This document shows positions 26,901 to 29,900 of a stretch of 64,000 nucleotides of DNA, piece after piece; position 1 is the first letter of the stretch, and each line of letters starts with the position of its first letter. Source of the stretch: Callorhinchus milii (Eukaryota); contig NW_024704763.1 in assembly GCF_018977255.1 (NCBI RefSeq), forward strand, positions 2,294,001 through 2,358,000. The letters run 5' to 3'. The notes under the pieces are model-generated. The model made no database searches. It was not told the DNA's origin and worked only from the letters and a program-made list of their open reading frames with translations. Position numbers and translations under genes: made by a program.

Positions 26901-29900
26901 AGTATCCCCATTCGTCTTCTCTTTCAAATCATTCTTCTCGACACTAACACCTTTGCGACACTTTTAGTTTAGACTTCAGCGTGGCCTTTCCCATTACTAG
27001 CACTGGGGAGAATCGTTGTAGTTGTTTGTTAGGTCTCTCTCTCCACCCATCAAATAAATAAAACTGACGTGCTGTGGGGCTCTGCAGTCTGGACAGGCAG
27101 GAACAATGTGGAAAAAAATCAATCCTGGACTCGACTGAATAAATTCCTATTTTAAAAAAATGGAACCTATAGTAAAATACCCAAATGCATTTTATTTTTA
27201 CGGAACATTATGAAACTTCGCAAGCGAAGCCTGACAATGAAAGAGGCGATGGTGTGCATTCTGGTGAAGGGCTGTGTCAGCAACCGACAAAACAAAAAGA
27301 TACTTCAGTGAAATCACCAGCACATGTGGTGGTGCCCACGTGACATACCGCAGTGCACTTTATCCAATTCACTCGTTCCGACAATTTTCTCAGATTAAAC
27401 TTCCTGCAATCAGAGTAGCAGAGTGGCCCGTGTTAACAACGTGAATCCACCACGCAATTTCCTCACAAAGTAAGGTCCAGATCTAAACAATCTATTTGGT
27501 ACTGCTGAGCAGTTTTATTACACTTTACTCGTCATTATGTTCCCCCATCTTTGCTATAGGATAACAAACACAATATCTCTTCAATCCTTACACTACTGTT
27601 CCCGCTCTAACTGTGCAGACCTCCTAGATTCTGTCTGACTGAGAATACATAGCAATTCTTAATGAAGTCTGCCAGCTCAGACAGTCAGTCAGTCAGTCAG
27701 TCAGTCAGCGTGAGGGAGGTTCATGTTGTGAACAGGAAAGAGCCACTGTTGACACAGCTTCTCCACCTACTCACTTCCACCCACCTACCCACACACTGCA
27801 GGAGTTGGACGTCTGATGCCTTTATTTCAGAGCTATAATTTGTGTTTTTTCGTGGTGAATGATGTACGTATATTTCTCTTCCCTCAGATTGAGAGTTGGA
27901 AACGCAAAGCTACGGAGGCCTGTTTCACCACGAACATGCTGCTTGCGGCAGGTAGGGCAATCCACACCCATTTGGCATTGTCACGCAGGTTTATTCCATG
28001 TAATCTCCACGGAATTCACAGGTGGATCCAAGTGGAAAGCTCCCTCATTGCAAACGCTTTGGTGTTTTGCACCATGAAGATTTTAAAGAGGGAAGGAAAT
28101 GCTATCCCATCGAAAAACAAAAGGCGTCGAGTTTTACAAGTTCACACGTAGTCACATTGTGGAGAAATCCAGAGTGGGCAGAATTGCAATATGTTCACCA
28201 CAAAGAGAGCAATATTGTATTTTCGCCCATTTGCTCAGTTGGTTCACTAAGGTGGAGGGGGAATTGGTATCCAGCAACAACAGGGTAGCGTTCCAGAGTG
28301 CTACAAACAAGGGAACACATTGAGAATTAGAAAAATACATTAATGATGGCAAAATGACCCAATCACTTGCACATCGCAGAGATCCTTGGCTTCAGGGCAT
28401 CTCTACTGGGAGCAGAGGTCTCATGAGTCAATTGCCGATGAGATTTAATAGGTGCCACCAGCTTGGGTTACATGGTTTTGTTGTTGTTGCTGCTGGTCTT
28501 GTTGAATGCAGTTCAACTTTGCTTCAGTTGACTGCCTGGAAAGGTAAGTGTTTGCTGCTGTTTTGACATCAGATCGATTTCTACCCTCGTTCGAAAATGG
28601 CAAACAAAGCGACCACTCGTCATATTCAGTTCATCAGCATTAATGCTTTAAAACGGGAACCACCTCTGGGAATTGAAAGCATAGTCTGTCACATCTATGT
28701 TTGACGTCACCTTTAAAATATTGATATAGAGTGTTAAATCGAGTGCATGATCTGAATTCCAATCATTAAATAAAATTCCCTCTCCTGGCTTGTGGGACAT
28801 TTCGGGGAAATATTCTTTCATATGCCATTTGTTTCAAAATTAAGCAACTGAGCATGACACGTAAGAGGATGATAGAAGCCCAAATCAGAAAGTTATGGCT
28901 TGGTTGCTGGTATTCACAATCTTGGCCGGGCTGAAAACTCACAGTACCTAACAGATCAGGTTATTCTCCACAGAAGGCTGGTTTGAGAGTGGCACGAGAC
29001 CAAATCCACTTTGCTAGGAAATAGTGCATGCTAGGCGGAAGAAGAGAAATCAAAGGTCAAGTGAAAATAAGGTAGATTAAACACAGGGGGTAAAAGTTTA
29101 AATAAGCAAACACATTGGCGGTGCCAAAACACAGGCAAACAGCAATAAGAAACTGCCTAATGTATGTAATCCTTATATTTGAGATAGCGCCTCATCACGT
29201 CATTGAGACGTCTCGAAGTGCTTCATATAATATAAATTTAATGAGATGAAGCTTGTTCAGATCTTGCAAATACTCTAGACTTGCTCTGTGCAATCACTCA
29301 GCAGATAGGTAGTTTGTTTACTTGGTTCATTTCCATGATTTGTACTAAGTCAACTCATCCAAGCACAGTTGATGCTACAGTTTGCCTCAAAACTCCCGGC
29401 TAGGGAGGATTTTTAATTACTATTAAAAGGAATTGAGCGAGCATGTCACTCTTGCACTAAAAGTAACAAAGAAAAAGGCGTCAAACATAGTCTAACAGAT
29501 TGTTCTGTTTGCCCTTTTCAGCGAGAAGAACAGACCGAACAAATAAGGAGCAGGCAGACATGCCAAAGGTTTGGCCAGTGCACGATGAAGTTTAGGCGTT
29601 AGGGACTAGGAATCACCTCAGTAGAATCTCGGTTACGTTCAAGCCTTGAAAGTGACTCCTATTTGCAGAAGCAACACTCATGGTACAAGTGCAACGTTGT
29701 TTATATCCGGTTCATGAACGATTAAATATTTGGCTGTAATCTTATGGTTTCCTTGTATGAGAATCTTTCAACACTTCTTAGATCACTCAGATTGAAAGAA
29801 GCCTTGGGGGGATACTGTGGGTCTTTGAAACTCCTCAGTTTATACATTTTCACTGATTACATAGAAATATAGATCGTGGGAAAGGGTCTTTCGGCCAACT

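Follow-up and report, generated by a model that had tools for sequence, protein, structure and literature searches.

Soluble alpha-Klotho arises by shedding or alternative splicing. LCTL (KLPH, gamma-Klotho) climbs sharply in maturing lens fibres (PMC8475287) and is described solely as a type I membrane glycoprotein in the available text of PMC13168428. Mouse KLPH is required for lens sutures and for Clic5 expression; the mouse work consulted treats gamma-Klotho as a membrane protein alone (PMC13168428). Retrieval by the KDEL receptor uses signals of the KDEL or HDEL type at the extreme C-terminus. Among all last-position variants in the AKDEX screen, L, F, M and I alone are named as giving an ER location in the part of the paper available (PMC2140024). 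A review gives the binding order as KDEL > HDEL > DDEL > HDEV (PMC12328878), and a second source disagrees with it on the order of KDEL and HDEL (PMC8248988). According to that second source, His at position -4 has a 10-fold higher affinity, the highest; DDEL is mostly secreted, with no working signal in human cells; overexpressed or abundant HDEL drives chaperone secretion, with BiP and PDI leaving the cell; and position -6 makes no contact in the receptor structures (PMC8248988). Positions -5 and -6 are reported to matter, and upstream residues can modulate retrieval (PMC7561476, citing Alanen 2011). Calumenin, which ends in HDEF, shows ER-like staining yet is secreted (PMC3325945).

We analyzed a 64-kb window, the whole stretch of Callorhinchus milii DNA under study, which contains the LCTL gene (Table 1). 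The membrane form of LCTL (XP_007903579.1) and the isoform described here come from the same gene and share 12 coding exons and a GH1 barrel that lacks the acid/base Glu. The second form differs in having no TM segment and in ending with HDEV. Like alpha-Klotho, this is a Klotho-family gene with an anchorless form. It differs from alpha-Klotho in that the HDEV form has a dedicated conserved exon, a selected C-terminal motif and its single GH1 domain intact.

Table 1. Features of the LCTL locus, in window coordinates
Feature	Position	Strand	Detail
Twelve shared LCTL coding exons	20956..27951	+	All GT-AG; predicted signal peptide, GH1 barrel, stalk helix
Branch-like CTAAC, pyrimidine tract and AG acceptor	29492..29521	+	CTAAC 29492-29496, AG 29520-29521
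LCTL alternative terminal coding exon	29522..29595	+	24 residues, then stop; spliced model = UniRef100_A0A4W3K0D5 (P0126)
Codons of the core W-P-V-H-D-E-V-stop	29572..29595	+	Single match within the 64-kb window; W(-7) and H-D-E-V unchanged in 45/45
Candidate polyadenylation hexamer ATTAAA, predicted	29721..29726	+	Sequence match
Candidate polyadenylation hexamer AATAAA, predicted	29954..29959	+	Sequence match
45-nt in-frame cassette exon (15 residues) before TM exon	30391..30435	+	Predicted 583-aa membrane form; same insert in 90/467 classified records
TM terminal exon, 568-aa form	30650..30762	+	Model = XP_007903579.1 (P0006), 0 differences; X1 spliced contig spans 30647-31272

The original prediction was of an alternative terminal exon, preceded by a branch-like CTAAC, a pyrimidine tract and AG, that adds an in-frame 24-residue tail and gives a product of about 555 aa with a signal peptide and no TM segment. 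These elements were all recovered. The tract before 29522 has pyrimidines at 16/19 positions and ranks second among the intron's 173 AGs, while the acceptor tract of the TM exon has 18 pyrimidines and ranks first of the 173 AGs in intron 12. Scored with a small acceptor matrix built from 11 sites of this gene, 29522 came 17th of 171; since the true TM acceptor came 18th, the matrix does not discriminate. Exon 12 (27888-27951) ends in phase 1 and, when joined to 29522, gives a 555-aa product with one stop, ending VWPVHDEV. Across its 555 aa this spliced model has no differences from A0A4W3K0D5 of C. milii, so that an automatic model of the isoform already exists in a database. The 555-aa form is without a C-terminal TM anchor, whereas the 568-aa form from the same gene has one. 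Its peak 19-residue hydropathy is 1.64, at the N-terminus, compared to 2.39 for the anchor of the TM form, and this hydrophobic N-terminus is predicted, from hydropathy alone, to be a signal peptide. The exon was also thought to have its own polyadenylation signals. ATTAAA at 29721 and AATAAA at 29954 are indeed present, but they are not distinctive and carry little weight, as 12 such hexamers in total lie in 27951-33000. When the intron was resampled with a Markov model, 7/1000 resamples gave an end of the type [HKR][DE]E[LFMIV] followed by a stop from any AG.

Predicted isoform models of this kind are usually backed by RNA-seq. Contigs of four runs presumed to be RNA were placed on 20700-32200, and one 1752-nt contig from run X1 joins the shared exons to the TM exon. 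Mean depth in the bin 29532-29915 was low, at 1.76 in X1 and 0 in the three others. Among the 15 listed rows of the joint table, which repeats filled and which has 620 more, the junction from exon 12 to 29522 was not seen. The best donor-like site of intron 12, AAG/GTAAGT at 28543 (+), has a score of 12.4 and no exon assigned to it.

A search of other vertebrate proteomes returned the same tail in jawed fishes and amphibians. The HDEV end was found in 45 of 472 stored protein records, a set that includes lactase, TIPIN and fragment entries. These 45 come from the chimaera, 7 shark and ray records (catsharks, houndshark, skate, rays), 2 bichirs, the coelacanth, four frog species, a newt and both teleost paralogues, lctla and lctlb, with zebrafish lctla X6 among them. 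A protein search with the tail only gave 3 matches among 4 candidates and no additional HDEV record. So that the motif was not used for selection, tails were sorted by the sequence following exon 12. The 467 records classified in this way fell into 209 TM tails, 90 in which the cassette precedes the TM exon, 45 whose first residue is Ala, 1 that stops at exon 12, 11 of other kinds and 111 that had no usable anchor. Tails starting with Ala end in HDEV in 43/45 cases, the other two being one truncated and one unrelated tail, and two further HDEV records lie elsewhere in the classification. The start is in the signal-peptide exon in 42/45 HDEV records. Conservation ruled out a frameshift or chance ORF as the source of the HDEV tail. 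From this comparison, 29522..29595 is a genuine, old alternative last exon of LCTL, predicted to replace the TM anchor.

The conservation is concentrated in particular residues. W(-7), H, D, E and V are constant, and the stop directly follows Val, in 45/45 HDEV records. On a tree of these records, with 3.23 substitutions per site, each of the five residues has 0 parsimony changes, while position -5 has 4, position -6 has 3, and the linker from -9 to -21 has 3-10. For comparison, 4/20 Val columns of the GH1 core are invariant across the same 45 records. Tail length varies from 19 to 25 residues, and the linker indels of 1-5 codons stay in frame. Judged by this pattern, purifying selection acts on W(-7) and HDEV. 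In the chimaera, a single base change would turn the Val codon, GTT, into a codon for I, L or F, each a better last residue, and none of these occurs; Val itself is therefore held by selection. The fugu model P0041 crosses the exon in another frame, and when both frames are imposed there is one DNA solution. If fugu encodes the same peptide, 23/24 bases over WPVHDEV and its stop are identical to the window in this one inferred pair; such near-identity hints at possible constraint at the DNA level. P0518 is a decayed, frameshifted copy of a fish lctl-like gene in which Glu at -2 is not encodable in the matching frame, and this fits loss of the motif after selection ends.

The tail appears to be restricted to fishes and amphibians. 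No HDEV end was present in 102 amniote records from turtles, tuatara, crocodilians, a lizard, birds and mammals, of which 79 have a readable terminal exon; the set was hand-picked by name, holds no human record and takes in 15 of the 365 members of the main bird cluster. The contrast between amniotes and the others has a Fisher p of about 1e-5, for records that are not independent, many genomes having one model. It is likely, from these records, that the exon was lost in amniotes. Both lungfish records are TM forms. Among 147 new, more distant GH1 representatives at 50% identity, no W..H tail was seen, and hence a pre-gnathostome form was not found, in a record collection that includes no true lamprey LCTL. 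Seven of these 147 end in xx[DE][LFMIV]; one of them, P0490, has a signal-like start and ends in KTEL. Two records labelled Lampetra planeri (P0049 and P0067), which lie on a 29-kb contig, match percomorph lctlb forms exactly at the C-terminus and therefore look like contamination or mislabelling.

The domain carried by the isoform was also examined. The exon-9 peptide is 100% identical to the C. milii lactase-like protein, and Pfam PF00232 covers residues 38-505 (E 4e-166), giving a single GH1 domain. At the active site, the acid/base position reads TFNNP (at 200) and the nucleophile YVTENG (at 410). None of the 40 HDEV records, out of 45, whose site was readable has Glu at the NEP position. 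By the GH1 mechanism, the missing acid/base Glu makes normal glycosidase activity unlikely, and the HDEV isoform likely binds sugars instead of hydrolysing them. A structure model built from 113 sequences (mean pLDDT 90.3) shows the barrel and a stalk helix that runs from 508 to 543 and is low in confidence over its last turns. The C-terminal coil has pLDDT <50 from 539, and residues 544-555 form a low-confidence coil. An earlier model from 24 close sequences, with pLDDT 39, was set aside in its favour. Docking of the tail onto its own domain was not predicted in the 113-sequence model, which weakly favours a free linear motif.

Next, the tail was compared with the KDEL-receptor code, which calls for K, H or R at -4, E at -2 and L, F, M or, weakly, I as the last residue (PMC2140024; PMC8248988). 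In the HDEV end, the invariant H(-4) and E(-2) agree with this code, and the last residue, Val in 45/45, lies outside it. The tail is like KDEL/HDEL signals in its position at the extreme C-terminus, its predicted signal peptide, its H-D-E and its free end, and it differs from them in having Val for L/F/M/I and the invariant Trp at -7. Random ends fit [HKR][DE]E[LFMIV] about 2 in 10,000 times, which makes chance a poor account of the likeness to HDEL. The original prediction took HDEV as an ordinary KDEL/HDEL variant that makes the product a soluble ER-luminal protein. The product is still predicted to be soluble, but the ordinary-variant part was not supported as it stood, with Val unnamed in the available text on the AKDEX screen (PMC2140024) and HDEV ranked under DDEL in that of the review (PMC12328878). 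Being ranked under the non-working DDEL, HDEV may lack useful KDEL-receptor binding. The invariant W(-7) is left unexplained by the receptor structures, given that they have no contact at -6. One chimaera KDEL-receptor locus was found, with 3 exon matches, in which R, Y, W and R have the spacing of 159/162/166/169 and an RY pair corresponds to 47/48. These six pocket residues, at the one locus compared, look conventional on a match of spacing alone.

We give about an even chance to the explanation that the product is a soluble 555-aa gamma-Klotho on which HDEV acts as a weak, tuned KDEL-receptor tag, leaving the protein partly held and partly secreted. Splicing of exon 12 to 29522, together with proximal polyadenylation, would select the exon, and the predicted signal peptide would direct entry into the ER. 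There, the receptor would capture the tail at low affinity through the H-D-E stretch at -4 to -2 and the free terminal carboxyl, in a binding weakened by Val in place of Leu. Part of the protein would then escape and be secreted, and the rest would be kept in the early secretory pathway. We speculate that the weak setting came under selection because an abundant lens protein with a strong HDEL would compete with chaperones for the receptor. W(-7) could, speculatively, supply a second contact. The mixed behaviour of calumenin is the one proposed here for the HDEV isoform; calumenin differs in belonging to an unrelated protein family and in its last residue, Phe being effective in the screen in which Val is unnamed. 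The literature searched yielded no binding, localisation or isoform-specific peptide data for the HDEV form.

The main alternative explanation, which we find doubtful, is that the isoform is freely secreted and that W-x-x-H-D-E-V-COOH binds a partner other than the KDEL receptor, such as the LCTL membrane form or a protein of the lens surface or matrix. This would suit a Val that never becomes I, L or F with the chimaera's GTT one base away, a W(-7) that equals HDEV in its invariance, and published data that rate Val poor as a last residue. However, a motif unrelated to retrieval would resemble [HKR][DE]E-hydrophobic at only the chance rate given above. In addition, no such partner is known, and the lack of own-domain docking in the model counts weakly against this explanation. 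Somewhat more tentatively, W-x-x-H-D-E-V-COOH might be a sorting or binding signal in its own right, recognised by one paralogue of the KDEL receptor that makes an additional contact with the Trp, or by another receptor. It would define a soluble gamma-Klotho of the fish and amphibian lens whose loss in amniotes may have accompanied that of other components of the aquatic lens, the neighbouring crystallin gene for instance.

We consider it unlikely that HDEV is an efficient retrieval signal and the isoform an ER-luminal resident, as originally predicted. H-D-E are the residues of the highest-affinity signal, the product lacks a TM segment but has a predicted signal peptide and a free tail, and the W-P-V context might compensate for Val, since upstream residues modulate retrieval (PMC7561476). 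The AKDEX screen and the binding rank nevertheless speak against Val, and the chimaera receptor pocket residues compared look conventional. An efficient signal should also accept L, F or M as its last residue, whereas 0/45 records have one of these.

Class III PDZ ligands have the pattern [DE]-x-hydrophobic-COOH, and a terminal Val is typical of PDZ ligands. D-E-V-COOH matches this pattern, and 2/45 HDEV records (P0026 and P0343) start at an internal Met, so the tail could in principle be a class III PDZ ligand in a cytosolic form. This is very improbable, because 42/45 records start in the signal-peptide exon, which predicts a luminal rather than a cytosolic tail. The short models, in which the barrel is partly missing, may reflect incomplete annotation, and a chance match of H and E to HDEL would occur in <1% of cases. 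Least credible is that the exon is kept for a role at the RNA level, either to control the dose of the membrane form or as a splicing element, with the peptide as a by-product: the fugu and chimaera cores appear to differ at only 1/24 bases, synonymous sites included, in the one inferred pair, but residues change at -5 (4) and -6 (3) between invariant neighbours, the linker indels of 1-5 codons preserve the frame, and the peptide is retained in both paralogues of teleosts.

LCTL is a known gene and databases already contain the isoform; this conserved, motif-bearing and predicted soluble form has been overlooked. Models with the same exon are A0A4W3K0D5 (chimaera), XP_073762540.1 (zebrafish lctla X6), XP_038668855.1 (catshark X2) and XP_064422022.1 (coelacanth); all are automatic annotations, and their names do not hint at the motif. 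We found no paper on the HDEV isoform or on the motif in LCTL in the literature searched, which leaves out most subscription papers, the main KLPH ones included, and covers the available parts of PMC13168428, PMC12232379, PMC12251298 and PMC10380485. In two supplementary files of a zebrafish lens proteomics study, whose examined rows are at the protein level, Lctlb is listed and the HDEV string is absent (PMC12232379).

The gene is of specialist interest, and the isoform is probably missing in mammals. The root of the jawed vertebrates lies over 400 million years ago. The predicted soluble isoform has been kept since that root and in both teleost paralogues, and it is apparently missing in amniotes. 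The HDEV exon offers a target for an exon-specific zebrafish knockout and bears on how fish lens proteomics is interpreted. Its tail is also a natural test of the KDEL code, in that the motif of the poorest-ranked binder has been held fixed by evolution.

Several other forms and features were observed at the locus. The conserved 45-nt cassette at 30391-30435, overlooked by the original prediction, is absent from the three C. milii models listed. Its insert is present in 5 turtle records and was not seen in any record examined from birds, crocodilians or mammals. A KKxx motif was present in 0 of 335 TM-type tails. Records of 274-306 aa (P0017, P0020, P0037 and others), many from fish, amphibians, turtles and birds, join exon 10 straight to the TM exon. 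Such models skip exons 11-12 in frame, and the barrel would be cut. The rodent Lctl records P0332-P0334 and P0336, one of them from a cDNA record, have a non-TM tail after exon 12 that starts GDV or GAT; these tails are probably intron read-through and share no homology with the HDEV exon. Crystallin-like reading frames lie at 17206-17445 and 18178-18444 (-), upstream of LCTL and opposite to it in strand.
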